NCBI RefSeq assembly: GCF_964204645.1
Contig: NC_134026.1
Location: forward strand, 14,294,150-14,358,149
Reading direction: 5' to 3'
Length of the DNA stretch: 64,000 nucleotides
DNA from: Tubulanus polymorphus
Lineage: Eukaryota; Animalia; Nemertea
The notes under the pieces: generated by a model
Told to the model about the DNA's origin: nothing
The model's input: the letters and a program-made list of their open reading frames with translations, nothing else
The model's database searches: none
Translations under genes and position numbers: made by a program
In this document: in pieces, positions 12,348-63,203 of the stretch
Numbering within the stretch: the first letter of the stretch is position 1
Layout: each line of letters begins with the position of its first letter

Positions 12348-12381
12348 CGAGCTAAGGATCTGATAACCAGCTGATGTCAAG

Positions 12382-15300
12382 ATGTCAAACTTCGAGACTT
12401 TAAAGCAGCTACGGACCACACATCGTGGACAGTTTACCAAATTGAAGACCAAATGCGATCAGTTACTCACAGAAGAGAGCGCTGCAAAAGGTATGTCCAC
12501 CTTACTTACCTTACGTCATAAATTCGGTAAACTCGAAGAAATTGAGCGAGATCTTCTCAGTGAGTGTACGTTGAAGGGCGCAGCTTTGAGCGAATTCGTT
12601 TCAGCCGGAGACGATGAATTGAATGATAAATTGACTGATATCAATTTTCTCGAATTTGCGTTTAACTAGCTTTTGTCGAAAAATAGGTCCGATTCGAACA
12701 ATGCGCCAACCCATCAAAGGTCGAGAATTTCGTTGCCAAAATTGCAATTACCGAAATTTAGTGGCGATATCCTAAAATGGTCGTCCTTCTTGGATTTGTT
12801 CGAATCTACAGTCGACAACCAACATTCGCTGAGTGACGTCGAAAAGTTCGGTCATCTTAAATGCCATTTAGGCTGTGACGCTAGGCTCGTTATTGAAGGT
12901 CTGCCTTTAACTTCCGTTAATTATGTTAAAGCTAAACAACTCTTGAAGGATAGATTTGGCGTTTCTCATAAGATAAGCGAGGCTAATTTGAACCAACTAG
13001 TTGATTTAGAACCTCCAGTCTACAGTTTAAATTCGTTGCGTCGTTTTTATGATAATTTAGAGCTGCATATCCGAAGTCCTGAATCTTTGAAGGTCGGGGC
13101 CGAGTCCTATGGTACACTTCTAGTTCCTATTATCATGAATAAATTGCCCGCTGAGGTAAAGCGGAACATTGCGCGTGCGAATGGGAGTTGCGAATTTGAA
13201 TTGTCTGTGTTACGTTCTGCGATATTAGATGAAATTAATATTCTCGAGTTCTGCGATACGTCATCAGCCGGAACGATGACGTCACTTCTCGTCGACAATA
13301 ATACCGCAAAGAATGTGCATGATTATAATCGTGTGAAGTTTAAATGTCGTTTTTGTCAGTCGAATGACCATTACCCTACGGCTTGTTGGCTATACGTTGA
13401 ACCGCAGGCTAGGCTGAATTTTGTTTTACGATACAAGTTATGTTTCAATTGTCTTGGTGCTCATAGAATGAATAAATGTTAGTCAAAGGGTTCATGTAGA
13501 GTTTGTAACAAACGACATCATACTAGTATTCATCGGTCGGAATTTCCGGGGCAGTTGAAAGTTCAAGTTCATTCTGTTAATTCGAAAGCTGGGCCCTCAC
13601 ATCCACCGGTAGCTAAAACTCCACGTGAATTACAACATGGTCAAACGTCTAATAACGCTGCTGATTCAGATTCAGGGTCTTCAGATAAGGCTGGCATTGA
13701 TGATCCACCGCCACCAGTTTCTGAATTTAATCATCTTTCCGTGGTTGAGGGTGGTGTTTCCTCTACTATATATCTGAAGACTGCTGTAGCACCGGTGGAG
13801 AGTGAAGGTACTCGTCTTAATGCTCACATACTATTAGATGATGGATCACATCGTACTTTCGTTACGTCGGCTTTAGTTCGCCAGCTAGGTGTTAAACCTC
13901 ATAGATTTGAATCCGTTGATTTGAGTGGGTTCGGTGCTGTCAGTACTGGGTCTAGAGTAGTTGACGTCGTGTGGATCAGTATTACGTGTACTGTTGATAA
14001 ATCAGTTGTTTCTGTAGAAGCTATCGTTGTATCGGAGATAACCAGACCACTCAGAGTTTCTAACGGTTCAGTTAATTGCATACCTGAATTTAAAGGTTTG
14101 AATTTTGCCCATCCGCCGGGGTACAGTTCTAGTTCCTTTGATATCTCATTACTCATTGGATCTGATAATTACTACCTTTTTGTTCTTGGTAATCAGCTCA
14201 TTAAATCTGCATGTGGTCCGGTTGCTGTTCCGTCGAAATTGGGTCATTTAATTGCGGGTCGGTATAACGGTGATGACTTAACCAATTCTGTTCAATTGTC
14301 TATAATTGCTGAACCTGACACTTTCGATCTCAGACGTTTCTGGTCTCTAGAAACGTTGGGTATAGAGTCACCTACTGACCGAGATACATATTTTCTGGAT
14401 GAGTTCTGTAGTAAGTCTATCATGTTAGTAGACGGGAGATACAGGGTTAATTTGCCTTGGAAAGATAATCACGGCATACTACCCACAAATTATAATGTTT
14501 CCAAAGCCAGAACTCGCTCTACGGTTCGTTGTTGGAGAAATATAGTGCTATAATTACTGATCAATTGTCACGTGGGTTTATTGAGCCTGTTGAAATTCCC
14601 TCCGTTGCTAGCACTCGTGAGCATTATATTCCTCATCACCCGGTTTTCAGGCAGTCATCTACTACTCCGATTCGTATTGTTTTCGATTGCAGCTGTCGAC
14701 AGTCGAAGTCTTCCGTATCTCTTAATGACTGCCTGGAAGCTGGGCCACCGTTGCTGAACGATATTACTTCTATTTTGATGCGTTTCCCTTTGTTCAATTT
14801 TGGGATTGCCACCGATATCGAGAAAGCATTCTTGCAGATTGAATTAAGTCCTGATGATCGTGATTCAACCAGATTTTTTTGGTTGAGTGACTCTAGCGAT
14901 CCGGAGAGCGAGTTTACTATATATAGATTCAAGCGTATCTTGTTCGGGGCTACATGTTCACCCTTTTTATTGAATAGTTGCATTATATACCATTTGCGAA
15001 ATTATGAGAGTGAACTTTCTCAACTACTTCTGAGAGACATATATGTTGATAACATTGTATCTAGTGTTCCTACTGAGTCGGATGCTTTGCGTTTTTTCCA
15101 CGGTTCTAGACAATGCTTCTCGGAAGTCAATTTCAATTTACGTTGTTGGTCTTCCAACTCGAAAGAGCTCCAAAAGTCTGCTACTGATCAGGGGGTTATA
15201 GAAAGCTCTACTGTCGTGAATATTTTTGGTATCAGTTGGGATGTTGAAAAGGATGAGTTGTCTTATGTTCCCAAAGTTTTATCATCTGTTTATCCATGCA

Positions 15301-15862
15301 CTAAACGCCTTGTCCTACAGAGAGCTGCAACAGTTTATGATCCACTAGGTCTCCTAGCTCCAGTTACGATTCGAACTAAAATGCTATTGCAGGATATTTG
15401 GAAGCAAAACTTTGACTGGGATGAACCCTTGTCCGTAGAGTTTAGAACTAAATGGCAAACTATACTTGTTGATATTCGTGAGAGTTTAGAGTTGAGTTTC
15501 CCTCGTATTGTAAATTGTCATTTACTGGACGGTACAGATTCACCCGTTGAGTTACATGTCTTTTGTGACAGCAGTATCTCCGCTTATGGTGCCGTTGTTT
15601 ATATTCGTTGTGGAAATTAATCAAGTATTTTGATTGCAAAAGCTAGGGTCGCACCTGTCAAGGAACTCACGGTTCCTAAACTTGAACTTATGGCCGCGTT
15701 AATTGGTTCGCGATTGATTAAACATGCTTATGATTCTATATCTGTTGTTATTGATTTACCTGTTGGACTCTTTGCGTGGTCCGACAGTCAAATTGTACTT
15801 GGCTGGCTTCGTTCGAACAAGAAGTTGTCTGCTTTTGTTTCTAACCGTGTAAAAGAGATCAA
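12382..15862 (+). pseudogene. BEL/Pao LTR retrotransposon B gag-pol (DUF1759 gag, Zn knuckles, protease, RT, RNase H); 3' truncated
   Basis: LPKLQLPKFSGD..W..F, CFNCLG.H, ILLDDGSHRTFV, FWSLETLGI, YIPHHPV, DIEKAF, IYVDN, YDPLG, LHVFCDSS..AYGAV, KARVAP..PKLEL. A few stops and frameshifts. Confidence 0.93.
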
Positions 15863-17300
15863 GTACGCGATATTCAACTCAGATTCACTGTATGCGGTTG
15901 GTAGATCTACTCTCGCGTTCGATTCGTAATTACAAACCACCATATTACCGACGACGCACGTTGGAACTGTATGCTAGGCACCAACGGTCTGGATTGTAAT
16001 CGACTTTGATTTGCCGCGGCAGCCCAATTGAATAACGCTACCTGCTACCTGGATCGAGGAACGAACTTGCTCCCATTCCGGAGACCCACTTTCACATGAA
16101 TAATGGCTAACGTATAGCCGTCACCGTGACCGGACGAAGCACTTATCAACGTAATATCCAATGACGATTTGCAGATTTAGGCTGACACGGACTCTGTCGT
16201 CTGCTTTGGAACAGCAGTCTCCCCGACTGACAGAACCTCAAAATGGAGAATGGTCGGGTGACCCTTATGACACTTAGCGCAAACCGCTGGTTTTCCGGCA
16301 CTCACGTTTGTGGTGACCGGTACACAGACAACCGAAACATAACCGTTTCGATCTCATAAAATCCGACTGTTTCTCAGATGACAAATTTTCGAATTTACTT
16401 AGTTGACCATTTCATGGTCCTTTGCTGCACAGAACAGGCTGGTTTCGACAACCCATTCTCATACCGACGATGGCTACAAAAAGGCTCAGCGTTAGTGATA
16501 CTTGAAAAATGCCGATTAAGTTTCGACGAAACTGGACTGAACTGGCGACCAAATACAGGGTCATCAACTTTCTTAGCTTCCTTTTTAACAAACGCGGTCA
16601 ACGCAGTGAATGACACCGGCGCGGAACGCTCTCTGAGATCATAGACAAGTGACCGCCACTTGCCCTGAAGATATCCTGGTAACTTGGCGACCAACTTACG
16701 GAGATTGTCCGGATACTCGAGAATTTGCATGTCATTCACGGAACTAACAGCACTCTCGCATTCACTTAAAAATATCGAAAACTGACCCGAGCCTCTACTG
16801 TCTTGACTTCAGGACACTGTGGATCCTTTGTATTATTGTTCGCGCGCGCAACGTTACACTTAGGCTCTGAATTATTCGGTAAACGCGTCTGTTCTTCGGT
16901 AAATCGATGACTTAACGCATCGGTGGCGTCGCGTTCACCTTCGACGTCCAACATACGGGAATCGAACAGACTCGCAGCCTCCAATCGGGCGGTGGCTATG
17001 GCTAAATTAGACGATAATTGAAGTTCTTTTTTCTGTAACCGAATTTTCAGCTTAGCTTTCTCTAATCTTTTCTTAGCATGAAACTGATCGAGCTTAGCCT
17101 GGGCCTCGGCTTTAGCCTGCACCTCCTTCAGTCTGGGTACTAATTCGGTGGAACTACAACTCCGTTCACTGCCTGCAGCAACACTACCAGCGGGACTGTT
17201 ACGAATCGACATCTTTAGTAAGTCTCACTCACAGGTGCGAATGTTTCGTTAATGATGTAACTCTGTCGAACAATAAAGAATAAAGTCGAATGTCATAAAT
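15863..17300 (-). pseudogene. BEL/Pao element A gag/protease region (5' part), degraded
   Basis: Coiled-coil gag N-terminus, NLRKLVAKLPGYLQGKWR...DPVFG, and a CFGCL..GH Zn knuckle near 16310-16345. Same strand as 4272-6105. Confidence 0.8.
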
Positions 17301-19747: not shown

Positions 19748-19913
19748 GTGAAGGCCGCCTCGTGGGCCTTAGGAAAGGGAACATCCGTGGTTATTTGCAA
19801 TGGAACAACCACCCATAGAGCAATCCTTGATATCGTATACGGTAAGAAGGTTGGTACCTTCTTCACACCTGCTGTAGATACTTTCGACTCGATAGAAAAT
19901 CAGGCTTTAGAAG
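19748..19913 (+). CDS. ALDH18A1: Delta-1-pyrroline-5-carboxylate synthase (P5CS), internal exon, end of the glutamate 5-kinase domain
   Basis: TTTCAG acceptor and G|GTAAGT donor. Encodes VKAASWALGKGTSVVICNG...ILDIVYGKKVGTFF...ENQALE, matching the recalled metazoan P5CS sequence VKAALWAL.GGTSVVIANG...DIVEGKKVGTFF. Confidence 0.93.
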
Positions 19914-21230: not shown

Positions 21231-21435
21231 ATATATCTTGTTTCATATCAAAGGTTAAAGGGGCGAGTGAGTAAAAAATAAAAATAATTTATTTTCATTT
21301 TTTATGAGCTATATACGATATATACAATTAATCTAATAATTCCGTATATATGAATAACATATAAATAAATAGCATATATAAATGAATAACTTCTAATCAA
21401 TCAAATCAATTTTAATGAAAAATTTGTTATCAAAA

Positions 21436-21780
21436 TGGTGGGTAAACAAACACACAGTGAATTCTGAAATATAATTAAAGATACAACAAATGTCAAATCT
21501 GTAGATTATAAATTTAAAAATTTAAATGAATTAACAATTCATAAGAAATATTTAATTACTAATATTGAAACAATTACTAATAGATATGGAGATAAATTAG
21601 TTATTCACTTAGAATATGAAGGATTAAAAGGAAATAAATATAAATTCAGAACGTATTTACCAGATAGATTTCATGGATTATCAAGTGAAGATCTAGAAGA
21701 ATTATGTTCGGGTGATTTCTATTTCATATACAAAGGTAAGAATGAAAAAGGGCACCATGATATAGATTTCGAATAATATA
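21436..21780 (+). pseudogene. Small Maverick protein of unknown function (YGDKL...RTYLPDRF), with paralogues at 44630-44943 (-) and 56320-56612 (-)
   Basis: Three colinear copies sharing YKFK..ELT..KKYL.TNIET and FR.YLPDRFH.LSSED.EEL. Confidence 0.6.
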
Positions 21781-21812
21781 AAATCAATTTTAATAAATGA
21801 TTTGATATTAAC

Positions 21813-27104: not shown

Positions 27105-30100
27105 CATCTACATCACATCTGTTACGTTGCAGAAATCCAATAAGGCATCAACAGCAACGGTAGAGAGAGCGGGGCGGAAATTTAGATGGTGGTAGCGCCG
27201 ACGCGCGATTTAAAGGCGTCGACGGTTTCTGCTGAAACTTGATGATTGGCTAGATGGTTCCAATCGATAATTGTTCTCGGAAAGAAGGAATGTCTGAATT
27301 GCTCCGTTTGACAGAACTGGACCTGGAAACACTTAGAGTTGTTTGTGACGAAACTCTCAGTACGATTGTCGGTTTCAAAGTCTTTAAGGTGGCTTGCTAG
27401 CCTGACTCTGCGCCTATTTGGCCGGATTGGCTTTAAATACTGGTTGGCTGGCATAGCTGGTACTAACCCCTCAACCACCCTGTACGGAAAAGTCAAGCGG
27501 ATCTTCTTAGGGCGTTCCTCCAGGCTTGGTATACAGAGTCTGTTGAGCATCATGGTGATTACGCGACTTATAGTCCTGTGTAATGAAGCGCGCTGGCTGT
27601 TTTTGAATGCGTTCGAAACGGTCGATGTCCGACCTGAGGTGCGGGTCCCAAACCGACGCTCCGTACTCGAGTATTGGACGATCCAGCGCTAGGTAGGCAG
27701 TGCGCCTACTGTTTTCGGTACAAGTGGCGTAAGTTCCTTCTTAGGAAACCGAGTGTAGAGCTTGCTTTCTTGACGATACTGTATATGTGCTTGCCCCACC
27801 TCAGGTCTTCTGATAACAGGAGGTCAAGATATGGGCTCGACTGAACCTGTTTGAGAGCCACGTTATCTTAGAAATAGAGGTACTGCGACTTTTCACGGAC
27901 GCGGATGATATAACACTTGCGTGCGTTAAATTTCACGCCCCATCGGAGGGCCCAATGTTCTAAATTCTCTAAATCCTGTTGGAGGGTTTTATGATCCTGG
28001 AAAGTTTTTATAGTTCGATAGAGCAGACAGTCGTCTGTGAACAGCCGCACTTGCGACCTAACAACGTCAGGGAGATCGTTAATGTGCACTAAAAATAAGA
28101 GCGGACCTAAGACAGTTCCTTGCGGAACTTCAGATCCGACATGCGCATCTTCAGACGATTCGCCGTCCCTAACGACTGTCATGGTACGATTACATAAAAA
28201 ATCGGACAACCAGTCAAGAAAATGACCACGGATACCATAATTCGTTAGCTTTGACAATAGTTTATTATGCAGAATGGTGTCGAATGCCTTACTGAAATCG
28301 AGTACCGCTATATCCACTTGGTTTCCAGAGTCATATGATGTGAGGAGGTCATGTGTGATGGTGAGTAGCTGCGATTCACAAGAATAACCACTACGAAAAC
28401 CGTGGTTCAAATCGGTCAAAATTGAATGATCCTCAAGGTGAGTACGTACGTGGCGGTAATCTATGTGCTCTAGTAACTTACAGCACACCGACGTGAGAGA
28501 TACCGGACGGTAATTTTCGGCAAGGTGTTTATCGCCCTTCTTGTAAATACTAGAGATGTTGGCGCGACGCCAGTCAGATGACAGGAGCCCAGTGTCCAAT
28601 GATCGCTGGAATATTCGTGTCAACATGGGTGAGATGTTATCGACACACATCTCTAATACCATGTTCGGAATACCATCCGGACCGCATGCTTTTGATGGAT
28701 TAATGTTCGTGAGCAGTTTCTTCACTCCAGTTTCGTCAACTATGATACCGCGGATATCTCGGTAATTATTCCCAGTTATACTTGTCGCATTTGGTGGTTG
28801 GTCATCAGAAGTTGAGAATACCGATTTAAACTGATTGAGGAGAATCCTAGCTTTACTTTTTCCATCGCAATGCAGTTTGCCATCTTCTTTTAGCGGTGAT
28901 ACGCCAACGTTGCCTCTGCGCCTAGACTTAATATACCTCCAGAATGGCTTAGTGTCTTTATTGTCCAGACCGGTTTGGATCGTATTATTGATATGATCCC
29001 ATTCTGCTTTACGTATCTCCCGTCTGCAGTCTTTCTGGAATTGACGATAGGTTTTCCAGTTTTTCCGTTTTTTAGCTTTCGCATAGAGACGCTTCTTACG
29101 ACGGAGAAGCTTCCTGATGGACCTGTTTACCCACGGTAGGGATTTTTTACCTCGACAGGTTTTAGACGGAATATGCCGGTCAACGCTCGCTTTTAAGATT
29201 ACTTTTGAAAAAGTCCCAGAATTCTTGAGGACCTCGGCCGCTTGCATACATTTGTTCGAGATTTGGAGTAATAACGCTTAGATTCGCTCGGAGCTTGTCC
29301 CAATTTGCTCGTGCAAACTGGTAATAACTTCTGCGTTTAGGCTTAACATAGTATGGTTTCGTATCAATGTCTGTAACCACCATATGGTGGTCTGATATAC
29401 CGGTATGGAGGTAGAAGCTTTCACTAGGTTTGGATCAGACGTGAAAACCAGATCAAGGAGATTTTCTTCTCTCGTGGGCTCACGATGCACCTGAGTTAGA
29501 TACGCTAACGTGGTGATATCTATAAGACGTTGTTGAGTTTCGCGATCTGGGCATGGGGCAATAGTAATGGCCGTGTCCCAGTCGATGTCCGGGCAAAAGT
29601 CACCAGCGAGTAAAATATGCTTTGGCTGAGGGCAGTTGGTAATCGGTCCCAGCATTTTTTCGAGATATAAAATACACCGATAATTATTTCACTGCTATTT
29701 TGAAGTTTTACTTAAGCCCAAACCGACTCACTATTTGACGATATATCAAGGAGTTCTTTCAAGATAAGCTGGTTGTTATTAAGGAGAAAAAACGCCACCG
29801 CCTAGGATACTACGGTCATTGCGGTAGGGTATATAGTCTTCCGGAAATAGTTCGGCCGATTTGATGTCAGGACTTAGCCACGATTCGGTGCCAAAGACAA
29901 TGTCGGGTTTTATATAGTTTATAACTGCTGCAAATTCAGCACTCTTATTTCTGACACTCCGACAGTTTACGTTAAGAATTCGGAGGTTTCCTCTATCACG
30001 CGGTTGGTTATGTGCAGAGTTATGCGGTTCACGCGGTGGAGACCTTTGACTGTAGTGACGTTGAGAGGAATGAGCAGATCTACTAGATCTATTAGATCTT

Positions 30101-30922
30101 GCACCAGGGGTGCTAACTTTGAACGGACTAAACGATGAACTGAAGACTGAGTCGACTGACAAGTTCTGGTCATTTAGAGGCCAGTACGGATTTGAGTTGT
30201 TTAACTCGTACGACCTGAATGTAAAGCTCCCGCAGTTTACACTGTCGCATCTGAGACGTATCCATGACACAGTTGAGCAGTTCAAGAGATCATAGTCTTT
30301 GGTACAATGTTCTACACATGACGCATGGATCCAAATATCGCAGTTGTCGCGCGCAACGCCTCGTTCTTCCCATTTTACCGGGTCGTTGCAATAGCCACAT
30401 GGGTATATGCTGCGGTTTGGTTGGCCAGGATTGAATTCGATGTCACCTGACATGAGGAGTATTAGTATATCTCAATGAATTGAAGGGTTTGGTCGACTTA
30501 TGAGGCCTTGTGCGGTTCACAGGGGATGACTGGCTCATTAAGTTACTTGATGAGCAGTAGGACGGTTCAATTATGTCTGTTGACATCTCATAATTATAAC
30601 GGTAATATAAAGTCACAAGGAGTAGAAGTAAACAAACACCAGGCATTCTTGTCGCCGCCATTTTGATGGTCGCCGCATCTTGAATTCTAACGGGGTGGTA
30701 TATTGGGGCCAGAAAACCAGCCAGACCAGGTGTTTTTAGCAAGCCATAGCGATTATGACACTTCAAACAGAATAACTAAGCATTGTTCTTCAGTCTATGA
30801 TAATAACTGTCTTCGAAAGGCTTGTAGAACGGTGAAAAAGCAGCTACGAAAAAAGCGATTAGCAGCTACGAAAAAAAGCCGCCATTACGAACAGCGCCCT
30901 GTCTCTCCCGAACGTAATTCTA
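27105..30922 (-). mobile_element. Non-LTR retrotransposon (RTE-X/CR1-like), near full length: 2A-like peptide, PHD finger, APE endonuclease, RT; frameshifted
   Basis: YPCGYC...CDIWIHASC; ILNVNCRS, GTESWL, GGGVF, AGDF, LDLVFT; KACGPDGIP, NYRPVSLTS, DFSKAFD, VPQGTVLGPLLFL, LFTDD, SFFPRTIIDWN. Short-repeat 3' tail; splits the repeat seen intact at 1-385. Confidence 0.9.
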
Positions 30923-31134
30923 GTAGCCATCCGCGACTCAACGACCTTGATTTAAACTTGATCAATTCAAATCCGTTTATTGACGCTTTTGGTTACATGA
31001 ACTGATCAGCAATATACTTAAATGAAATAACCGGAATAACAAGAAATCAAAAATATTAAAGAGGAGTAAAAGGGATAATAGGGGTTCAGGCCAAAGGTCG
31101 AAAGGTCTAGCTCATACAAAATGAAAAAAATGAA

Positions 31135-31845
31135 AATAATAACAATTTCTACTTTAATTACTCGCGAAACTCATAAAAAATGAAAAATAATTCTCGCACA
31201 CTCGAATTTATTTTTGATTTTAAATGAGTTTCACTCCTAATTCAAATAGAAATTATTATTATTTTCATATTTTTCATTTTTTACTCACTCTCCCTTTCAA
31301 CCTTTAACCTGAACCCATATTATCCCTATTACTCTTAAAATATTCATATACATGAATAAAATATAAATGAATAACATATATAAGTAATTGGGGTTTCAGA
31401 TCAGAGGACGGAGGACGAGCTCTTATAGAATAGATAAATAGATATATTTTAAACATATTTCAATATTTATATTTGTATGAGTTAGATTTTTAAACATTAC
31501 AAGTGTTAGTAAAGTGTGATCAAAATAATTCATATATATATATATATATTTTAAAATTTAGTATTAAAATGGAAGCAAATAAGTACTACTGTTCAACATG
31601 TAATATCAATATAGATAAATCTCAAAAAGCAAGACACAATAAAACTAAAACGCATTTAGAAAATAAATTAAAGTTAAAATATGAAGATGATATATTAGAA
31701 ACTAAATTAGATGAATTAAAGGATGAAAAAGAAACATATAAATGTGATACATGTAATCAATCATTCAGTGATAAAAGATATTATAATGAATATTTAAAAT
31801 CTAAAAGTCATATTAGAAATATGAATAATGATATTTTAGGTGAAG
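31135..31845 (+). repeat. Left arm of a ~700-bp inverted duplication (partner 38015-38765), covering the Maverick upstream region and the pPolB start
   Basis: Both arms encode MEANKYYCSTCNINIDKSQKARHNKTKTHLENK and share GGGGTTTCAGATCAGAGGACGGAGGACGAGCTC. Confidence 0.9.
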
Positions 31846-34580: not shown

Positions 34581-35666
34581 TTAGTTTATGTTCCAAATAG
34601 TATTTATTTATCAGCCGATATAAAAGTAACCGGTAATAATAATAATTATGTTGTTGATGTTGAAAGATATTTGATTAAAAAATTAACTAAAAAGATCGGT
34701 CCAGAAACAGTTTTCTCATTAGATGATTATAATTTATTTATGCATTATAAAGATTTATGGTTAACTAAAGAAAATATAAATAATATGATATTTCAAGGCA
34801 TCCAATCAGAAAACCAAAATAAATTAAGATCAGAAGCACATAATGCAATATTAACTAATGCTATAGATAAATTGATAAAAAGTATATATGGAAGCAAATA
34901 TAAAATTCCATTAGACTTTGAATTGATAAATAATAATGCGCCTTTATATATATACGCAATTCAAGAAGATATTATATTCGAAATAACATTTGCTCCTGTA
35001 AATGAAATTGTAATATCTAGCGTTAATAAAGATATGGGTTATAAATTATCGAAGATATGTTTAGAATATGATACAGTAACTGATGAAAATATTTCAAGTA
35101 TAATTCAAACTCAATACAATCAAGGATTTTCATTATTATATGATTATATTGATAAATTTAAAACTGTAACTATTAATGCAAGTGATGAAATTATTAATGA
35201 GAATATTAACTTCCCAAGAAGATCTATTAATCAAGGTATATTAATATTTTTTACCATTGCAACATATACTAATGGTTCAATAAATGTTGATAATTATTAC
35301 AATCCTGAAATAACAAAAGTAGAAATAACTATCGAAGGAATAGCAAATAAAATATTTTGTCAAGGAATGAGAATGATAGATCAATGGCCAAAAATTAGAA
35401 AACATTTTATGAATGAAAAAGTAAAATCATCTGAAAATTGTAATATTAATCAAATTGATTATTATACCGGTAATAAATATGCATTATGGTTAGATTTTAG
35501 AACAACAGAGGATAATTCATTACATGGTTCTGGAAAAAAAATACAGAACACTAAAGATGGAATACAATTATTCATGACAAAGAATAAAGGAATCAAAAAT
35601 TTTAAAATGCACATTTATATTATATCCATTAATAATAATTTAGATTTAGTTTCAATGACTTTATGA
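34580..35666 (+). CDS. Polinton/adintovirus major capsid protein (double jelly roll), N-terminally truncated and fused in frame to the upstream gene
   Basis: VPNSIYLSADI, YKDLW, YGSKYKIPLDFEL, FEITFAP, ICLEYDTV, YNPEITKVEITIEG, KYALWLDFRTTEDNSLHGSG, all typical of invertebrate Polinton MCPs (recall). Confidence 0.75.
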
Positions 35667-36669: not shown

Positions 36670-37419
36670 TATTAAAGACTCAACGTATTGTTCATTATTT
36701 GGATTATTGTTCCATAATTCAATGAATTTCTTTGCTTTTGTTAACTGTTCTAAATATAACTTTAAATCTAGTGTATTAAATTTTATTTTTATTTTCTTTC
36801 TTTTCAAGAGGTCTTAAATTTTTCCAATTCCAAATAAGTTTTTTATTGTATTCATCATTCATGTTAAATTTAGATATCGGTAACGTATGATCAATATGAA
36901 AATAATCTCCATAAATATCTATATTCATTTTATCATCGAATTGATATATAATCCATGATTTGAGAAGTACATCTGAACAGTCTAGCAAATTAGATAGTGT
37001 AACTGAGTGTTTATCTTTACTGAATAAATGTGTTAATCTAGAACTTAAACATTGTTTCACTTTAAAATTAAAATCTGTTTTATATCTTTCTTTTTGATAC
37101 TTTTTCTTATAATCATTATAATATTCTCTATTATTATCCCTCCATTCTCTCATATATTCTGGGTGATTTTCTCTCCATTGTTTATTATGAGCTTTCCACT
37201 TTTCACTATCATCTATATAATAATCTGGATTATTTGATAGAATTTTTTACAATTTTGTTTATTACAAGTTTTGCAATTATAACTTTTGCTATCTTTAGAA
37301 TATTTATCTTTATTAAATTCTGCTAATGATTTATTTATTTTACACTTAGAACATGTCTTCTGATATATATTTATAACACTATTTGTAATATTAATAGTTT
37401 GTGATTGTTCTGGCCCCAT
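36670..37419 (-). pseudogene. HNH-type endonuclease with an N-terminal Cys4 finger, copy 1
   Basis: KTCSKC...F.KD....CKTC; YGDYFHIDHTLPISKF...WNWKNLRPL...EN. Confidence 0.75.
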
Positions 37420-38014
37420 TTATATTACATATTTTTATTAAAATTGATTTCCATATTTGGAGTTATGATATTTTGATTTAAGATGGTGTGATTTATTGCT
37501 TCGAGTATAATATTTTCCACAATTACATAAAACGCTTTCATTAGGATTATATTTAGGTGCAATAATTTCATCATCTCTAATTACATTGAGTTCCAACATG
37601 TTTAAATGATTTTTCATTATCTAATTCACATTGAATACCAAAATTTGATGAATTTTCATTCTAGATAATTGGTTTATCATCAAAATTTAAATAATATAAT
37701 TGTCTTCAATTCTTAAGTTAATCAAATCATTGTAATCTTTAGAAAGTATTAAATCATCATTTCGTTCAGTGAAAGGAGTTTCAAGAATATTTATAATTTT
37801 TTCATCTTAAATTCCTTTATGATTTAAAACTGTATTAAATATATTAGGACTTTTGATTCCATTATCTATCAGTTCAATAATTAAATATGCTTCATTTGAT
37901 AATATTTGATTGATTATAGAAATATCATCAATTTTATATTGTCTTCCATACACTAAATTTGTTGCTGAGATATGGTTTTTAATGTTAAATAAAGAAAATA
38001 AGTTATCATTATTC

Positions 38015-38765
38015 ATATTTTAATATGACTTTTAGATTTTAAATGTTCATCATAATATCTTTTATCACTGAATGATTGATTACATGTATCACATTTATAT
38101 GTTTCTTTTTCATTCTTTAATTCATCTAATTTAGTTTCTAATATATCATCTTCATATTTTAACTTTCTTTTATTTTCTAAATGCGTTTTAGTTTTATTGT
38201 GTCTTGCTTTTTGAGACTTATCTATATTGATATTACATGTTGAACAGTAGTACTTATTTGCTTCCATTTTAATACTAAATTTTTTTTTTAAATTGATTTT
38301 ACACATTTTATTCATTTATATGTTATTCATGTATATATATATATATATGAATTATTTCAATCACACTTTACTAACACTTTTAATGTTTAAAAATCTAACT
38401 CATACAAATATAAATATTGAAATATGTTTAAAATATATCTATTTATCTATTCTATAAGAGCTCGTCCTCCGTCCTCTGATCTGAAACCCCACTTTTCTTA
38501 TTACTTATATATGTTATTCATTTATATTTTATTCATGTATATGAATATTTTAAGAGTAATAGGGAGAATAGGGGTTCAGGTTAAAGGTTGAAAGGGCGAG
38601 TGAGTAAAAAATGAAAAATATGAAAATAATAATAATTTCTATTTGAATTAGGAGTGAAACTCATATAAAATGAAAAATAAATTCGAGTGTGCGAGAATTA
38701 TTTTTCATTTTTTATGAGTTTCGCGAGTAATTAAAGTAGAAATTGTTATTATTTTCATGTTTTTC
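38015..38765 (-). repeat. Right arm of the inverted duplication (partner 31135-31845)
   Basis: Near-identical reverse complement of the left arm. Confidence 0.9.
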
Positions 38766-38789
38766 ATTTTTTATGAGTTTCACTCCTAA

Positions 38790-40790
38790 AATCAAACAGC
38801 TATGTCATAAAATTGAAGAAATCAATAATGAAATAGAAAGATTAAATTTAAATAGATCAAAAGATGTTGCTAAAATACCAACTTATAAATTTAAAATGTT
38901 AGCTAAAACATCTGAGAATTATATATCTTTCCAATTTGGATGTCTAAGATTTATAGATTCATATAGATTTTTAATTAGTTCAGTAGTTAATTTATCAAAA
39001 TCATTAGTTGATGATGAATTAGAAATATTAAAACAACACTATCCAAATAATGATGATTTTCAATTAATGAGATATAAAGGAGCAATTCCATATTCATTTT
39101 ATAAATCGCATTATGATTTCAATATAACTGAACTTACAAAAGAACAATTCTATGATGAATTAAGATCCGAATATGTTAAAGATGGAGTTTATGATAGAAC
39201 ATTGAATATTTGGAATCATTTTTCAATAAAAGATCATGGAGGTTTAGTAGATTTGTATTTGAAATCAAATGTATTATTATTAACTGATATATTTGAAAGG
39301 TTTAGAGATGTAAATCTAAAATATTTTAATGTTGATCCTTGCCACTGTTATTATTATCATTCTAGTTCAGGATTAATTTGGGATTGTGGTTTGAAATTTA
39401 CAGATATAAAAATGGATTTGTTAACAAATATAGATCAATTATTATTATTTGAAAAATGTATAAGAGGAGGAGTTTCAGGTGTTTGGGTGATAGATATTTC
39501 AATGTAAATGATAATCCTGGATATAAGTTATTATATATGGATGCAAATAATCTATATGGTTGGGCAATGATGGAACCACAACCTCATGGAGTATTTCAAA
39601 TAACTGAAATTTTACAGTATGAAACTAATGAAAAATTTCATTGGAAGAAAAGAATTCTAGATATTGGAGATGATTCAGATACTGGATACTTCTTTGTTGT
39701 AGACTTAGAATATCCTGAACATATTAAATTTAAATCAAGAAATATGTCTTACTGTCCCGAACATAAAACTGTAACATATGAAGAATTATCAAATTATCAA
39801 AAAAGAATTAAACCTGATAATCATATTCATACAGAAAAGTTAATGGTGACTCAGGAAGATAAATATAATTATATAGTACATTAGAGAATTTTAAAATTCT
39901 ATTTGAATCAAGGAATGATTCTTAAAAAAGTACACAGATATATTTCATTTAGCCAATCTAAATGGTTGGAAAATATATAGATTTTAACACCAAACAGAGA
40001 ACTAAAGCTAAAACTGATTTTGAGAAAGATTTCTTCAAACTAATGAAAAATGCATTCTATGGTACGACTTGTGAAAATATTAGAAATAGAAATGATATTG
40101 AGTTAGTTAGTAATGGTAAAAGAATTAGACATTTACAAACATATCCTAAATCTATAATTGGTAACAGAATATTTGATGAAAATGTAGCTGCTGTTAAAAT
40201 GAGGAGAACAAGTATGACATTTAATAAACCAATTTATGTTGGAGCATCAGTTTTAGAAATATCAAAATTATTAATGTATGAATTTTACTATAACGTATTA
40301 CAACCTCATTTTGGAGAAAAACAAATAGAAATCTTATATTTTGATACTGACAGTTACATTTTAAAGATAAAAACTAATAATATAACAGATGATTTGAAAA
40401 CATTAAAACATCATTTTGACTTAAGTAACTATCCAAAAGATCATGAATTGTTTAGTAACGAAAATCAAAAGGTCCCTGGTAAATTTAAAGATGAATTAAG
40501 TGGTGAAGAAATGATAGAGTTCATAGGTATTAGATCTAAAATGTATATATAGTTATAGAACTAAACATGAATCAAAGAATTTGAAAGGAATTACCAAAAG
40601 CCTTGTTGAAAAAAATATTCATTTTAAAGATTACATCAATTGTATATTCAATGAAGAAGTTAGAAAACATAAGATGAAATGTTTAAGGTCTGAGGACGAC
40701 CACGAATGTTTATTGAAGAGATAGAAAAGGTTAGTTTGAACCCATTTGATGATACAAGATATATTCTGGATGACGGAATTCATGTAGTCG
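38790..40790 (+). pseudogene. AT-rich Maverick pPolB, exonuclease/polymerase half; intein-free allele
   Basis: LRFIDSYRFL, KGAIPY, LLLTDIFE, IRGGVS, YMDANNLYGWAM, FFKLMKNAFYG, KPIYVG, LYFDTDSYILKIKT, PGKFKDE, LNPFDD.RYI. Confidence 0.92.
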
Positions 40791-40899
40791 TGTATTGTTG
40801 ATGGATACTTAAAATTCATAAGAGAAGAAACAAAAGAGAATGAGATAATTAAAAGAATTATTACATGTAAATCAATTTTAGTAAAAATATGTATAATAA

Positions 40900-41551
40900 A
40901 TGAGCCCAGAAAAATCACAAACTATAAATATTACAAACAATACTGGTGTTATAAATATATATCAGAAGACATGTTGCAAATGTAAAATAAGTAAGCCATT
41001 TACAGATTATTATAAACGTAAGATTGGTGAAGATGGTTTACGACATAATTGTAAATCTTGTATTTAACTAAATACTAGGCAATATCGAGCAGATAATAGA
41101 GAGCATTATAATGATTTTATGACAGAATATATGAGAGAAAGATATCAAATAGATTTTAATCTTAAATTGAAACAATGTTTAAGAACTAGATTAACACAAT
41201 TATTCAGTAAAGAAAAGCATTCAGTTAAGCTATCAAATTTGTTGTTCAGAGGAATTCTTAAAATCGTGGATTGTATATCAGTTTGACGATAAAATGAATA
41301 TAGATAATTACGCTGATTATTTTCAAATAGACCACGTGTTACCAATATCGAAATTCAACATGAACGATGAATACAATCATAAGTTAATATGGAATGGGAA
41401 GAACCTGAGACCTTTAGAAAAACTAGAAAATATTAGGAAGAGAAATAAACTAGATTTACAGTTATATTTGGATCAGCTGTGTAAAGCAAAGACATTTGTT
41501 GAATTATGGAATAGTTCAACAGAGGATGAAAAATACATTGAATCTTTATAA
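40900..41551 (+). pseudogene. HNH-type endonuclease, copy 2, directly downstream of pPolB
   Basis: KTCCKC...CKSC; FQIDHVLPISKF...NLRPLEKLEN. Confidence 0.75.
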
Positions 41552-43133: not shown

Positions 43134-43900
43134 ATGAAAAAAGAACAATATTTAAGAGATTTATATTATAACCCAGAGAGTGAAGTATCATATTCTAGTG
43201 TTTCAGAATTATGGGATAGAATTAAATCTGATAAAGAAAATATAAAATATAGTGAATTAAGATTATGGTTACAAAATCAACCAACATATCAAATCCATAA
43301 AAAAATGGATAAAAATTATTTAACAAGAAAAGTTATGGTTTCATATATTGATCAACAATGGCAAGCAGATTTAATCGATATAAAGAACTTAGAAGAATAC
43401 AATAAAGGATATTTTTGGATATTAAATGTTATAGATATATTCAGTAGATACGCATGGTCAATTCCAATCAAAAACAAAACTGGTAACAAAAGCTTTTAAA
43501 GATATATTTAAAGAGGCTATTCCAGGTAAGATACAATTTGATGAAGGTAAAGAATTTGATTATAAAATTTAAAAAAATCATTATTTGATAACGATGTAGA
43601 GTATTTTTCAACACACTCAGATAAAAAAGCATCTATCATAGAAAGATTCAATAAAACATTGAAAACTAGAATGTGGAAATATTTTACTGCAAATGAAACA
43701 TATAAATATATCGATGTATTAGATGATTTAGTGAAAGGTTATGATAATTCTAAACATTCAAGTATTGGTATGAAACCTATACAAGCTAGCAAAGAAGAAA
43801 ATTCAGAAATAGTTTGGAATAATTTATATGGAGCATTTGTAACACATGATTTTGGAGAACCTAAATTTAAAATTGGGCAAGATGTAAGAATATCTAAATA
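43134..43900 (+). pseudogene. Maverick/Polinton retroviral-like (rve) integrase
   Basis: LYYNP, WQADLID, IDIFSRYAW..PIKNKTG, QFDEGKEF, KASIIERFNKTLKTRMWKYF, YDNSKHSSIGMKP, KFKIGQDVRISK. Confidence 0.93.
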
Positions 43901-43924
43901 TATTAAAAAATATTATTTACATCT

Positions 43925-44615
43925 TATAACTAATTCTTAAATAACAAGAATTATTATCTAAATCAATTAGATATCCATTATGATTTCAAATTCAAATTTA
44001 GAATTATTAAATCGTGGAGTACAAGGTTTAAAATCACATTCTGATAAATTTTAATGTTTTTGTGTTCCAAATTGTTTTACATTTCTAATGGTAAAATATT
44101 TAATAAACTAGAATTAACAGTTTTAATTTTATTTGCTTCATATGTTTTTAAAGGTTCAATTAAATTGCAATAAATATTAAAATGTGTAAAAGGCTTTATA
44201 TTTGTTAAGGTATCAACATTTGAATATAGTCTATCCGGGCTAATTCCAAACGGTTTAGCTAAAAGTTTTTTTTTATCATTAATGTGTGCTGTTCGTCAAT
44301 AGATAACCGCATCCTTATTTTATTAGAAAAATCACTTTTATTAAATCTAATTTCAAATTCAGCAGATTCTCCCATTTTTGAACGAGCTCTTTTATTAATT
44401 TCTTGCGCTAATGAATCTAAATTATATAATCCTGGTTCAAGAAATAGACGATACCATTTACCCAAATTTCTAACATAAATTATAAAAGCCAAATGATCAA
44501 GACTTTTATTCGAAATATTATAACACGAATTACATAAACTAATATTTACCAATTTTAAATCTACACGATTTCTAAATTCTCTATCTAATTGTATTAGTGA
44601 AAATCTATATCTTGG
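43925..44615 (-). pseudogene. Polinton minor capsid protein (penton-like), copy 1
   Basis: ISLCNSCYNI, PGLYNL, HFNIYCNLI, and a C-terminal NGYLIDL-type motif. Paralogue at 52495-53239. Confidence 0.65.
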
Positions 44616-45206
44616 TGTCCTTTTTCATTCTTACCTTAATATGTGAAATAGAAATCACCAGAACATAGTTCTTCAATATCTTCACTAGATAATCTATGAA
44701 ATCTAGTAAAATCTAGTATATCTAGTAAATACGTTCTGAATTTATGGTTATTAATTATTAATTATTAACTAATTTATCACCATATCTATTAGTTGTTTCA
44801 ATATTTGTTATTAAATATTTCTTATGAATTGTAGTTCTGTTTACTTTTAAAATTTATAACCTACAGATTTGGCATTTGTAATATCTTTAATTCTAGCTAG
44901 AAATGATTTGTTGTTGTCACTGTGTACTTGTTTACTGTGCATTTATTATACAAATCTTTTATTGAAATCGATTTTTAATATGCCAAATTTCATAAATATA
45001 ATATTCATAAATATGAAATTATTAGATTAAGTGTAATAAATGTTGTTTCAGATCGAAGGTTGAAATGTTGAGTGAATAGAAATAAAAATAAATTCGAGCT
45101 TGCGAGAATTTATTTCTATTTTTATGAGGTCGATCTTTCGACCTTTGATTTGAAACAACTATTATACACTAACTCGTATTATTAAATACTTATTTTATAT
45201 TTTCAG

Positions 45207-47399: not shown

Positions 47400-48650
47400 T
47401 TAAATTAAACCTTCTCTTGATAAGATTGACCTAATGATTATGCTCTATTAACCTAAGTACGTCATCACATCCGGAAATGATATTATCCACGTACAAACTT
47501 CGAGTGATGTCAATAGCTATTTCAATTCCAAAGTGTTTTAAGTGATATTTAAAAGTAGCATTCAATATGAAAGGGAAACTCTTCGCTCCAATAAACACGA
47601 AATCTGTAGACTATTTTGATCTTGAAAGCGACTATTTCGAAATGAAATGGAAGTTGCTGGTCGCTATCTAATTCATTTGCGGCGATACCGATCGATTCTA
47701 AGCTCAGAAACTTTTCATGTTCTATTTCTTCCTTCACATGGGAAGCATAAGTGGCCAATACAAAGCTCCTACCATCAGAAACGCGTGATCGTGACGCAGG
47801 CCAAGATAACGTATATCCTAATTTCGAATTCACCGCGGTTAGGCCAGGACCACGAATTACGTCATCACTCACATATTACCAAAAATAGTCCGCACCTATC
47901 ACAATTCAAACTTCGAAATACCGTGAGTCCACTGGTGCAGCTCAGCGTACGTCACGTAAATGAGGACAGATAAGTGCGTTCGAATTCATTCTATTGATGA
48001 TGAGAGAAGCAATTTCCGATAAAAAATAAAGCTCCAGACCGATGTGATCTCCATCTATTGTTGAAATATACAACTTCTCGACATCAATTTTTCGGCTTAA
48101 AGAACGATTTCCACCGAAACCGGCAACATTGTTAATTTCAGTCCTGACGATTTTAATCCTAACTTGTCAGCCAATTCTGTCGTTAGAATACCTTGTTGCC
48201 CTAACGTTAAATGATATATTAGCCGAAAAATGGATAGCGTTAATTGCTGTACATAAATTTGCGACAGCCGTTTTTGATGAAACTTGACCATACAACTAGC
48301 TATTATTGGTACCCGTGCTCGCTCGAAACTTTGAGATGTCCAACAAAGTTTCGTGAAACTGTGGGTTGCGATTATGCTTTCATATCAGCCGGTGACACAA
48401 AGTGACCCATAACGTGAATCAGTTTCAGAAATGTTTGGTTATTATTGCAAATTCCTGGAATTCGAATCTCCCTCTTTTCTACCAGTGCACTGACTGGTAT
48501 GGTGTTTTCATCAGTTAAAGTTAAACCATCCGCAACTTTCGTAGCATCGCCGAATATAACAGATCGCAAATAGTTTAACTTCTCTGCCCCTTATAGAAAC
48601 GAGTCTTGTTCGACAGCTGCAGAACAACTGTCCCAAAATGCGGGAAAATC
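47400..48650 (-). pseudogene. Highly degraded BEL/Pao gag-protease-RT fragment (element C)
   Basis: KLNYLRSVIFGDATKVADGLTLTDEN (DUF1759), GLTAVNSKLGYTLS, FLSLESIGI, and a remnant resembling SLYVD near 47490. Confidence 0.7.
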
Positions 48651-48669
48651 AACGATATCACCGGAGAAA

Positions 48670-49015
48670 TCAAAATGAAAAAATGTTTAAGATCTAAAGT
48701 ATCAAATTTATTCAGTGAAGATAAACACTCATACACACTATCTAGTTTATTGGATTGTACAGATGAATTTTTTAAATCATGGATTTTATATCAGTTCGAT
48801 GATGAAATGAATATAGATAATTATGGTGAATATTTTCATATAGATCACGTGTTACCGATATTTAAATTTGATATAAATGATGAATATAATAAGAAGTTAA
48901 TTTGAAATTGGCAGAATCTGAGGCCACTAAAAAGAATTGAAAATAAAATTAAACATAACCAACTAGATATGAAATTATATTTAGATCAGTTAGCAAAGGC
49001 AAAGAAAGTGGTTAG
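48670..49015 (+). pseudogene. HNH-type endonuclease, copy 3 (fragment)
   Basis: NYGEYFHIDHVLPIFKF...NWQNLRPL. Confidence 0.7.
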
Positions 49016-53880: not shown

Positions 53881-55198
53881 ATGGATGAGAAGATACCATG
53901 TGAAATTTGTGGTGAACTTCTAAGAAAAAGTAATATATATGGCTCGACATATGAAAAAACATGATAAAAATTATAAACCCCCTAAAATAAACTGCCCAAA
54001 TTGTAATAAATTATTCTCAAGAAATTATGTTAAAAAACATTCCGAGAAGTGTAAAATTGATGACACAACGATTAATGTTGATAGTAACGAAAGTAATTGT
54101 AATTCTGTTGAATTTGAATCTGAAATTATTTGGAAAAGACCTTTCTTATTCTATGATAAGGATACTATAAAAGATTATTTCTGTGAGCCTTGTCGAATAA
54201 AATATAGACCTGAAAATATAGAAGATTGGGAGAATCATCAATTTCATAAAGCACATATAGATAAAATTTCTAATAAATTTGAAACTGAATTCAATGAAAG
54301 AAAAAATAAAATATTAGAAAAAATAAAATATGAGGAAACGTTTCTAGATAATGAAGAAACACTTTAAAAGTTGGAAAAACAATATAATGAATTAGTAAGA
54401 AAAACATATTATTGTAAATATTGTAAATTGATTATTACACCAAGTAATTCAAATCTACATAATAGAACAATAAAACATAAAGAAAACGTAAGAAAATACC
54501 AAGAGCTTAATGAAGATCTATTACCAAGAAATGATAGAAAAAAATGCCCACAATGTATTTATGGGCACTTAAGACAAGAAGGTCCTGTGATATTTTGTAA
54601 TCAATGTGGATGGCAGAAAAGTTTATGGGGTGATGAAAAAACTAGAGATATTCTTATAGAACCAAAATTAAAATATCTAGATGAAATTTTTAAGATATTT
54701 TCTATGGAAGATCATACACCAAAATATATGCAATGGCTTGAACAAATGAAAATGATAGAAAATAAAAATGGTGAAATAACTAAAAAAGATATAATAAAAA
54801 CAATTATTCCGTCAACATTTAACACACAAGAAAAGAAAATGTATTTATATCTATTATTTAACGATTATTATAAAAAACCTAAATTGACAGAAGAAGATAC
54901 GGAAAATATAAAAGAAACATTCAAAAAAATATTAAGATATTACGTGGATAATAGAATAACAGATTCAATTAATTATGAATTCTTTTTAAATAAGATTGAA
55001 AATTTTTTAAACATCGATATTATATTTCCATTTGATGAATTAACAAACAAAAAGAAACAAAGAGAACGAGATGAAATGTGGTACAATATAGAACTTTATT
55101 TAAATGAGAAAAATGAAATGGAAGAACCTAAACAATTAAATAAAAATGAAGAAACCAGTAGTGATTTCGAGTATGATGATATTGATTTTATGTTTTAA
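53881..55198 (+). pseudogene. Multi-zinc-finger Maverick accessory protein (one frameshift, one internal stop)
   Basis: CEICG, CPNC...H...C, CEPC...H.....H, CKYC...H.....H, CPQC...CNQCG. Confidence 0.6.
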
Positions 55199-55386
55199 TA
55201 ACCATAAGGTAATGTTTTTATTCCATCATCCAAAATATATCTTTTATCGTCGAATGGATTTAAACTAGTTTTTCAACTCCATTAATGTACATCTCGTGAT
55301 CTTCTGATCTTAAACAATTCATTTTATGTTTCATTACAAAAAAAAGTTATGTCATTTGTCTTGATTTTTAGTATGTACGCATCCGT
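55195..55386 (-). pseudogene. pPolB C-extein remnant (TDAYILKIKTND, then a deletion to the C-terminus)
   Basis: TDAYILKIKTNDIT, followed by CLRSEDHEMY...SLNPFDDKRYILDDGIKTLPYGY*. Homologous to 40345-40790. Confidence 0.85.
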
Positions 55387-56311
55387 ATTCCGGGCTATTA
55401 ATGGAAATCCACAGTTAAATTTGCCATCTTCAGTTGACAAATCATAAACATATTCTGATGGGTTATATATTTCGAATAAATCTTTAACTTCTTCAGTTAT
55501 TTCTTTTTCTGTATGCCTTAGATTAAAACAATTTGGCAAAGATTTAATCAATCCAATATTCATATTAAAGCCTAATGAATTACATAATAGATTCAATCCT
55601 GATATACCAACTTTTCCTTTTTGTACAAATGTTATTACTGGAGAACTCGTAATTTTTTAGCACCATCTGCTGCATAGAATCCAATGAAGAACCATTTTCT
55701 TAAATTATCTTTTGCATCTAATACATAATCTGGAACTATCTTTTCTTTTGTTGAAATATTACTTTTAAATATTGCATGAATGTAGAATTCGTCATTATAT
55801 TTTATAGCAAAATCTTTAGGGTTATTCACGAGTATTCTATAAACTGCTGATGATTTCATAACATCCATGATTCTAAATGTTTTATTTGGATAAACTTCTT
55901 CACAGTATTTCTTAATTCTTTCTAATCATTTCAAATCTTGATTACATAAATGCCAAAAATATTTATTACCACTAACATAATTATACACACCTGCTGAACC
56001 ATCTCCCATGAAAAATCCTTTGATAAAATATTCTTTTTCTTCTAATGTTTCGGGTTCTATATTATAAATATTATCAATTATTTCATCAAATGACATATGA
56101 TTCATTCTTTGGAAAAATCTTTTATGTAATAATTCATCTCCAATTTTTATATCAGTTGGTTTTATTTCATCACCATTTCGTTTAATTAAACTATGATCTC
56201 CTGTAACATCTACAAACCCTAATTTAGTTCTAACTCTGTAAATCTTTTTATTTGTTTTATGTCTAATTATATTCTTTAATTTTTCCATCCATTTCTTGTC
56301 CAAACATCCAT
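55387..56311 (-). mobile_element. Intein with a LAGLIDADG homing endonuclease inserted in Maverick pPolB motif C; degraded, block A deleted
   Basis: Block B VDVTGDHSL; LAGLIDADG motifs IKGFFMGDGS and FFIGFYAADG; block H-like LLCNSLGFN; block F YVYDLSTEDGKF; C-terminal LIARN followed by Thr+1 of TD(S/A)YILK. Confidence 0.9.
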
Positions 56312-56672
56312 TAATCCTTTATATTTGAAATAGAAATCGCCAGAACTTAATTCTTCAATATCTTCACTTGATAATCTATGAAATCTATCTGGTAGATACG
56401 CTCCGAATTTATATTTATCACCTTTTATTCCTTCATTGATTTATTACTATGTATATGAGTAACTGTTTCAATATTTGTAGTCAAATATTTCTTATAAATG
56501 TTAATTCAGTTAGCTTTTTGAATTTATAATCTAATGATTTTATATTTGTAGTATCTTTGATTCTAGCTAGGAATGATTTATTGTTCTCACTGTGTACTTG
56601 TCTACTCTGCATTTTGATATATGATTACTTATTAAATTGATTTCATTATATAATATATTATGTATAAAATAT

Positions 56673-56911
<239 letters not shown>

Positions 56912-57483: not shown

Positions 57484-57627
57484 TGAGAAATGGGGGGAGA
57501 ATTCTTTCTGCTTTGAAACCGGAGGATCGAGCCGCAATTGTAATCGATATTGCAAGGAATTTGATTGAGCAGCAAGGTGATATTTTAGATGCAAACAAGC
57601 AAGATCTTCAGGAAGCGAGAAACAAAG
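57484..57627 (+). CDS. ALDH18A1: P5CS internal exon, start of the gamma-glutamyl phosphate reductase domain
   Basis: TTTCAG acceptor and G|GT donor. The phase-1 join with the previous exon gives ALE-V-RNGGRILSALKPEDRAAIVIDIARNLIEQQGDILDANKQDLQEARNK, matching recalled [36 protein letters not shown]. Confidence 0.93.

Positions 57628-58164: not shown

Positions 58165-63203
<5,039 letters not shown>

Follow-up and report, generated by a model that had tools for sequence, protein, structure and literature searches.

A decayed LAGLIDADG intein in the DNA polymerase motif C of a Polinton within a ribbon-worm intron, and its likely descent from giant-virus inteins

The DNA analysed here, called the window in what follows, is a stretch of 64,000 nucleotides from the nemertean Tubulanus polymorphus (assembly GCF_964204645.1, contig NC_134026.1, positions 14,294,150 to 14,358,149), and all coordinates refer to positions within it. 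Two exons of a host gene are found on its plus strand, the first at 19748-19913 and the next at 57484-57627; they match exactly residues 277-331 and 332-379 of P0178, the P5CS protein of the same species, with AG/GT borders on each and identity at 103 of 103 residues. The intron between them is 37,570 nt long (19914-57483) and contains, on the strand opposite to that of the host gene, a decayed LAGLIDADG intein that interrupts the protein-primed family B polymerase, or pPolB, of a Polinton in its motif C, YxD|TDS (window 56308-55387, minus strand). The first-pass annotation had located this element inside an animal gene, which holds for the intron of P5CS and not for the host coding sequence. 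An intein of the host protein itself was considered and rejected, since the remnant is intronic and the flanking exons join in frame without it; what lies here is the intein of an integrated virus-like element. It is this window that provides the one link of the pPolB intein with an animal. The P5CS intron consists mostly of Polinton debris of several subfamilies, which share 70-90% DNA identity. Broken ORFs at 12367-15929, 27868-30471 and 59368-61399 have motifs suggestive of a BEL/Pao LTR retrotransposon and of LINE elements.

The remnant corresponds to residues 49-354 of the intein of P0002, an intact polymerase described below, with 63% identity over 308 columns (E 3e-140). Along the minus strand it presents the string VWTRNGW (56305-56285), read in the sequence, then block B with its TxxH motif (VDVTGDHSL, 56187-56213), the first LAGLIDADG motif (IKGFFMGDGS, 55995-56024), the second LAGLIDADG motif (IGFYAADG, 55662-55685), and finally blocks F and G (55387-55452), which run from YVYDLST (55452-55432) to FPLIARN (55407-55387) and end in the terminal Asn preceded by Arg. 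Both LAGLIDADG motifs retain their acidic residue; block B, both motifs and blocks F and G were recognized by sequence and profile match together, and for the first motif the Pfam family LAGLIDADG_3 scores above cut-off in the intact relative P0002. Of the residues aligned with the P0002 intein, 51 of 63 are identical in the N-terminal part, which serves splicing, as are 118 of 194 in the endonuclease and 25 of 41 at the C-terminus. Block B reads TGDH in the remnant and TEDH in its relatives, and the penultimate residue is Arg as opposed to Ser, Lys or His, whereas the VYDL of block F and the border ARN|T have the Asp, the terminal Asn and the Thr at +1 in place.

A profile built from 48 inteins of RNA-primed PolBs, without any Polinton sequence, was searched against all six frames of the window and matched the three reading-frame pieces of the remnant in order (E 1.6e-44, 5.2e-18 and 3e-20), its next best match anywhere in the window having an E of 0.17. 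As to the profile search proposed with the initial annotation, this custom profile recognizes all three pieces, and Pfam gives an Intein_splicing match below cut-off (E 4.7e-4) for one of the three and no LAGLIDADG match for any of them. Pfam intein scores are below cut-off for the intact P0002 as well. PHROGs returned zero matches for the three pieces, and the PDB match of the remnant is PI-PkoII (E 1e-4). The strings quoted in that annotation are all in place, on the minus strand and in three broken pieces, and its identification of an intein is borne out by the ordered profile matches and the similarity to P0002; none of the outcomes that it had named as refuting its interpretation was observed. 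Within the intein, the reading frame is broken three times, by frameshifts near 56281 and near 55650 and, between them, by an in-frame stop codon at 55928-55926; moreover, the first 48 residues, with block A and Ser1, are missing together with the entire N-extein. The residue that defines canonical class 1 inteins, Ser, Cys or Thr at position 1, is therefore deleted in this copy, whereas it is Ser in all five intact relatives. The window copy cannot splice in its present state, and the earlier description of a dead copy, lacking block A and the N-extein and carrying frameshifts and one stop, was accurate.

After the terminal Asn, the C-extein begins with Thr at +1 and the second half of pPolB motif C (TDAYILKIKTND, 55351-55386, minus strand), which over 13 aa is 85% identical both to P0197, an intact intein-free pPolB that shares 50% identity with P0002, and to an intein-free pPolB at 40.3 kb in the window. 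The first-pass annotation had correctly read this half motif following the Asn; to be added to it is an internal deletion of about 95 codons, which follows the 13 motif-C residues. Beyond the deletion lies the pPolB C-terminus (55198-55328, minus strand), 80% identical to P0197 over 44 aa (E 5e-21), with a further frameshift near 55270. Neither of the giant-virus polymerases in the test set, P0106 and P0066, matches the C-extein pieces. To judge from sequence similarity, the flanks are those of a Polinton protein-primed family B polymerase and not of a giant-virus PolB, as had been proposed, and the insertion site in motif C is corroborated by five intact pPolBs with the same border.

On the other side, a small Polinton ORF truncated at its 3' end (56316-56701, minus strand) is joined by deletion to the interior of the intein. 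It has no Pfam or PHROG match. Two paralogs were located, one at 44634-45014 and one at 21345-21781, the second of which immediately precedes a pPolB start. A convergent zinc-finger ORF of the same element, with one in-frame stop, occupies 53924-55198 on the plus strand (zf-U1 above cut-off, E 2.3e-7) and is covered by the same multi-copy contigs as the intein. The intron also holds, on the plus strand, a broken intein-free pPolB of a sister subfamily (38791-40795), 65-82% identical to P0197 and with an empty site YFD|TDS at about 40346, as well as a broken rve integrase (43134-43940), which belongs to neighbouring debris; for the latter, Pfam rve is below cut-off (E 0.0014) and ORFs from IMG/VR pPolB loci match with a best E of 3e-42. 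A probable double-jelly-roll major capsid gene at 34700-35666 (plus strand) is a candidate on the strength of an ESM Atlas feature score of 0.97 and of Capsid_NCLDV on 18% of the members of one top cluster; the candidate minor capsid in the window has a weak DUF5901 match (E 0.014). The intron is made of scrambled fragments, and of the 290 inverted pairs detected, the 25 longest include none that bounds the remnant copy as terminal inverted repeats would.

Other Polinton features of the window deserve mention in their own right. An inverted duplication of 775 nt (91% identity, 31111-31833 and 38004-38777) brings a Polinton end region and a pPolB start around the capsid-bearing block. A second Polinton pPolB, with a G+C content of about 50%, lies outside the P5CS intron at 7999-11017 (minus strand); it is intein-free and falls in a clade without inteins, and the window thus has empty motif-C sites at 40.3 kb and 8.2 kb. 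Free-standing ORFs with an HxDH motif are present in three copies, at 36779-37246 (minus), 41195-41548 (plus) and 48597-48902 (plus), one of them with a weak match to endonuclease VII (phrog_1035, E 0.003), and these ORFs are candidates for a second selfish nuclease of the window's Polintons.

Four public runs of one organism, all from one study, contain the stretch. From three of these runs, which may include the source sample, 1,229, 324 and 348 contigs were mapped at 80-100% identity; they cover all 30 bins, intein and flanking genes alike, with a depth that is not a copy number and with no listed piece spanning the stretch. A marine metagenome run with a share of 0.09, mostly in short partial matches, was left out of the evidence, and no RNA dataset is among those listed as containing the stretch. 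In the three runs, most of the depth lacks the window's stop codon and first frameshift, and loose contig ends gather at 56314-56317 and 55339-55346, which are the two deletion junctions. It follows that the Polinton family is multi-copy and that the damage is likely private to the window copy, the decay of which is likely its own.

The first remnant piece, used as query, recovered 29 proteins, eight of them partial proteins with a pPolB intein, and the best long one is P0002, a complete protein-primed PolB of 1,693 aa in which PF03175 and LAGLIDADG_3 are both above cut-off and an insert of 354 aa is bordered by YGD|S and N|TDS. A search with this insert produced 1,101 matches, the best 120 of which include five pPolBs (P0002, P0010, P0032, P0047 and P0049), the others having PF00136; a profile search added five pPolB-intein fragments among 132 new rows. 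The five intact pPolBs represent five clusters and both pPolB classes, and in every one the insert sits at YxD|S...N|TDS and keeps Ser1, TEDH, two LAGLIDADG motifs, VYD, the terminal Asn and Thr at +1. The predicted model of the P0002 intein has a pLDDT of 92.5, and in a Foldseek comparison each of the 12 rows listed for ranks 1-13 is an intein that carries a homing endonuclease (E 2e-18 for the best); I-DmoI and PI-type proteins, with the alpha/beta fold of LAGLIDADG endonucleases, are among the structural matches, and on this model the intein is predicted to have a Hint fold. A PDB search with the full alignment, dominated by polymerase matches, was left out of the evidence. Scans of viral and metagenome contigs yielded no DNA locus of an intein-bearing pPolB: the pPolB extein is present in none of 161 contig loci (1, then 80 retained of 517 and 80 of 441, one further scan giving none), and 0 of 26 IMG/VR pPolB loci carry an intein. 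Related inteins outside PolB motif C were observed in P0009, P0027 and P0267, of which one resembles topoisomerase II and has several inteins, another contains PF04991 and PF00535, and the third is unclassified; RNA-primed PolBs with lengths of 1,800-2,800 aa are frequent in the set P0033-P0058, and in some of them the intein profile matches two or more stretches.

These relationships pose a question of descent: how did one intein come to occupy the same catalytic motif in polymerases that do not align with each other? The pPolB inteins are 37-44% identical to giant-virus PolB inteins, and 37-43% in the comparison with three giant-virus-type inteins, and the exteins of pPolB and giant-virus-type enzymes have a BLAST match in 0 of 15 pairs; lateral transfer is therefore hard to avoid. 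Mimivirus PolB (P0106), for which the available part of PMC549080 reports an intein of 351 aa in R322 at residues 1053-1403, has its insert at the same site, with 38% identity to the remnant. The closest relatives of the remnant are other Polinton inteins (43-63%), ahead of that of Mimivirus, and so the remnant belongs to a Polinton-specific intein lineage and is not a fresh jump. A quick intein tree of 109 rows, 102 of which have RNA-primed hosts, places the pPolB inteins in one clade (support 100) inside a clade of RNA-primed PolB inteins (99). In a careful tree of 52 rows, hand-picked from the 109, which had been gathered by similarity to P0002, and with a root of our choice, six pPolB inteins are united in one clade (100/100), itself nested in a clade of 37 rows (100/99), the remainder of which consists of RNA-primed PolB inteins. 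Five RNA-primed neighbours match GVMAG-labelled contigs at 99-100%, the label presumably standing for giant-virus MAG, and the C-terminal string GFPLI is common to the pPolB inteins and one giant-virus subclade. Judging from the nesting and the relative diversity, the donor is likely to have been a giant virus and the direction from giant virus to Polinton. The kinship with giant-virus PolB inteins noted at first reading has been confirmed, and the proposed movement between a Nucleocytoviricota PolB and a Polinton is well supported as a transfer, probably in the direction just given.

The intein could be equally real and mobile and yet have come from another donor, such as an archaeal, phage or protist-virus PolB, or have moved from Polintons to giant viruses. 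By the AU test, a tree that places the pPolB inteins outside the giant-virus subclade is not rejected (p 0.21), nor is one in which P0010 falls outside the Beta-class inteins (p 0.33); most tree neighbours are metagenome proteins, and the same allele is found in archaea according to the available part of PMC549080, as well as in the Asgard-labelled MAG record P0115. We consider these origins unlikely, though worth keeping in mind, in view of the nesting support of 100/99, of RNA-primed hosts that are far more numerous and diverse, and of the GFPLI string held in common with a single giant-virus subclade. As to P0115 itself, it is a PolB labelled Candidatus Heimdallarchaeaceae MAG and may be archaeal or a mis-binned virus.

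A second displacement is suggested within the Polintons. The Alpha and Beta labels used here are our own assignment from the strength of Pfam matches; PF03175 is above cut-off for both P0002 and P0010, and P0010, with its strong PF03175, is Alpha in the sense of PMC8502044. The inteins of P0010 and P0002 are 46% identical and their N-exteins do not match, so that a jump between the pPolB classes is indicated wherever P0010 branches. In the comparison of intein and extein phylogenies that had been recommended, the inteins form one clade across both classes and the exteins of pPolBs and giant viruses are unalignable.

Evidence for mobility comes mainly from the cluster of P0032, which has 136 members, 15 of them listed, on contigs of 57 kb to 1.0 Mb; with a 129-aa member left out and another that ends before the site, 13 alleles were compared. 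Seven have the intein and six precisely lack it, and alleles of the two kinds are about 99% identical away from the site (95% in one case). All ten fixed differences between them fall at -7 to +44, against none in the other 1,131 positions (p 5e-14), and the family as a whole varies most around the site (6 of 20 positions, p 4e-5), p values that are overstated because members of one family are not independent. After the site, the residues of the intein-bearing alleles equal those of P0188, a protein from a sister family, over 13 positions. Co-conversion of the flanks is established for homing endonucleases, and the P0032 tract, seen at the protein level, is the pattern that homing with co-conversion would predict.

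Part of this evidence could also be accommodated by one entry into a Polinton ancestor followed by inheritance and loss, with an endonuclease that no longer homes and with the P0032 tract produced by ordinary recombination between subfamilies. Among Beta-class hosts, intein identity (42-47%) and extein identity (39-50%) are indeed comparable and the two trees branch alike, a similarity of pace that would fit old co-descent as well as homing. However, such a history would have to explain why ten of ten fixed differences cluster next to the site when the sequence to its left and right is about 99% identical, why the intact copies retain both LAGLIDADG motifs, and how the P0010 intein came to lie in an extein that does not align; it would also require four precise losses or gains, since intein presence needs at least four changes on an extein tree of 48 rows. 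We judge it quite improbable.

Homing may also have left traces in the target. Within the intein-bearing clade, 5 of the 16 rows that lack the intein have the motif-C variants DCDS or DTDA, against 0 of 24 elsewhere (p 0.007); with one family merged, the count becomes 3 of 14 (p 0.04, counts read by eye). Escape from cutting is a possible reading of these variants, and only a hint, because the window's own intein-bearing copy also has a variant, TDA. The forms YTDCDS, YFDTDA, YGDTDA and YMDCDS were noted in P0155, P0157-P0159, P0161, P0162, P0202, P0204, P0262 and P0307, which are intein-free alleles with intein-bearing relatives.

Two further explanations have been rejected. The rearranged state of the copy, with no listed contig spanning the remnant, might suggest a giant-virus insertion, a contaminant or an assembly chimera that merely appears joined to a Polinton gene; this is very hard to reconcile with a C-extein that groups with pPolB and not with P0106 or P0066, with the same junction found intact in five independent pPolB clusters, with a G+C content of 26% next to 25.5% in the neighbouring pPolB, and with the position of the remnant between consecutive host exons. 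A Hint domain of the Hedgehog or BIL type, of the sort that metazoans do possess (PMC5784728, in the part available), can be dismissed, given the two LAGLIDADG motifs, the terminal Asn with Thr at +1, the insertion in a catalytic motif, the exact presence/absence polymorphism and the fold matches to homing inteins.

We therefore favour, with good though not full confidence, the interpretation of the remnant as a dead LAGLIDADG intein in motif C of a Polinton pPolB within a ribbon-worm intron, the intact kin of which are predicted to splice and likely to home, and the lineage of which is likely giant-viral. Direct observation covers the insertion site and the arrangement of domains, the flanks of pPolB type, the intron of the host gene, the intact relatives and the coexistence of alleles with and without the intein in one Polinton family. 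Following established intein chemistry, an intact precursor would splice by means of Ser1, the TxxH of block B, the terminal Asn and Thr at +1, and would thereby restore YxDTDS and an active polymerase. In other Polinton copies, the endonuclease would cut motif-C DNA that lacks the intein, and repair with an intein-bearing copy as template would transfer the intein along with a short flanking tract. The lineage may have arisen by a single acquisition from a Nucleocytoviricota PolB allele, then resided for long in Beta-class Polintons with repeated gain and loss, and made at least one jump between the two pPolB classes; the copy in the window would subsequently have decayed through two deletions, frameshifts and a stop. 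A bolder version, in which a living giant-virus-derived intein homes among germ-line Polinton copies in animals, jumps between classes and drives escape at motif C, amounting to a homing drive with its arms race, is advanced only tentatively, as plausible and not yet probable.

Polintons would then constitute one route by which an intein enters an animal genome. They would also preserve a record of genes passing from one virus phylum to another at a catalytic motif common to polymerases that are otherwise unalignable, and such an exchange implies a cell in which Polintons and giant viruses were present together. The many copies of a Polinton family allow intein-bearing alleles to be compared with intein-free ones, and homing, co-conversion and target-site escape become directly testable. 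The intein also accounts for Polinton polymerases of 1,500-1,700 aa, its lineage may be a source of new Ser1 inteins and homing endonucleases, and its presence opens the question of why animal host genes remain without inteins.

In the part of PMC5784728 available, inteins are given as absent from metazoan genomes, and those of viral polymerases are listed solely from large DNA viruses and from viruses without a classification; inteins of invertebrate iridoviruses are cited there, so that inteins in animal viruses are not new. The available portions of PMC12220804, PMC3671162, PMC5718144, PMC2814812, PMC13768754 and 10.1101/299784 have nothing on inteins in Polinton pPolBs or animal genomes. 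The word intein is absent from the main text of PMC10748475, PMC8502044 and PMC8097293 and from one supplement each of the first two, Hint domain and LAGLIDADG have 0 occurrences in the text and supplement of PMC10748475, and Polintons are unmentioned in PMC10710043 and two supplements. Across the published literature searched, no Hint/LAGLIDADG intein is reported in a Polinton pPolB or an animal genome; subscription journals, Repbase, InBase and bioRxiv supplements lay outside the search, and an earlier mention is possible. By these searches, the occurrence of a known giant-virus PolB intein allele in Polinton polymerases and in an animal genome is previously unreported.

The system can be set beside several that are known. 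The intron shares with Polintons/Mavericks (adintoviruses, as described in the available part of PMC8502044) a divergent Beta-like pPolB, an rve integrase and a probable capsid gene. According to the accessible text of PMC10710043, nuclear scaffolds of Klebsormidium, Tetrabaena and a labyrinthulid bear virus-like DNA polymerases with inteins, which resemble the present case in that an intein resides in a eukaryotic nuclear genome by way of an endogenous viral polymerase gene; algae and a protist are the hosts there, whereas the intein studied here is carried by a multi-copy Polinton in an animal. HNH and VSR nuclease inserts in Polinton pPolBs (PMC10748475, part available) have in common with the lineage of the remnant a nuclease domain inserted in the polymerase, and PMC11071308, in its available part, cites that paper in suggesting that nuclease inserts in pPolBs come from intein invasions; unlike them, the Polinton inteins have a full splicing domain, a position at the active site and presence polymorphism. 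Finally, the inteins of Mimivirus and of allelic Nucleocytoviricota PolBs are like those of Polintons in their motif-C site, Ser1, TxxH, two LAGLIDADG motifs, terminal Asn, Thr at +1 and length of about 350 aa, but the carrier in our case is a protein-primed Polinton polymerase, which sits in an animal chromosome and is unalignable with the giant-virus enzyme, and the clade of the Polinton inteins is a separate one with long branches.
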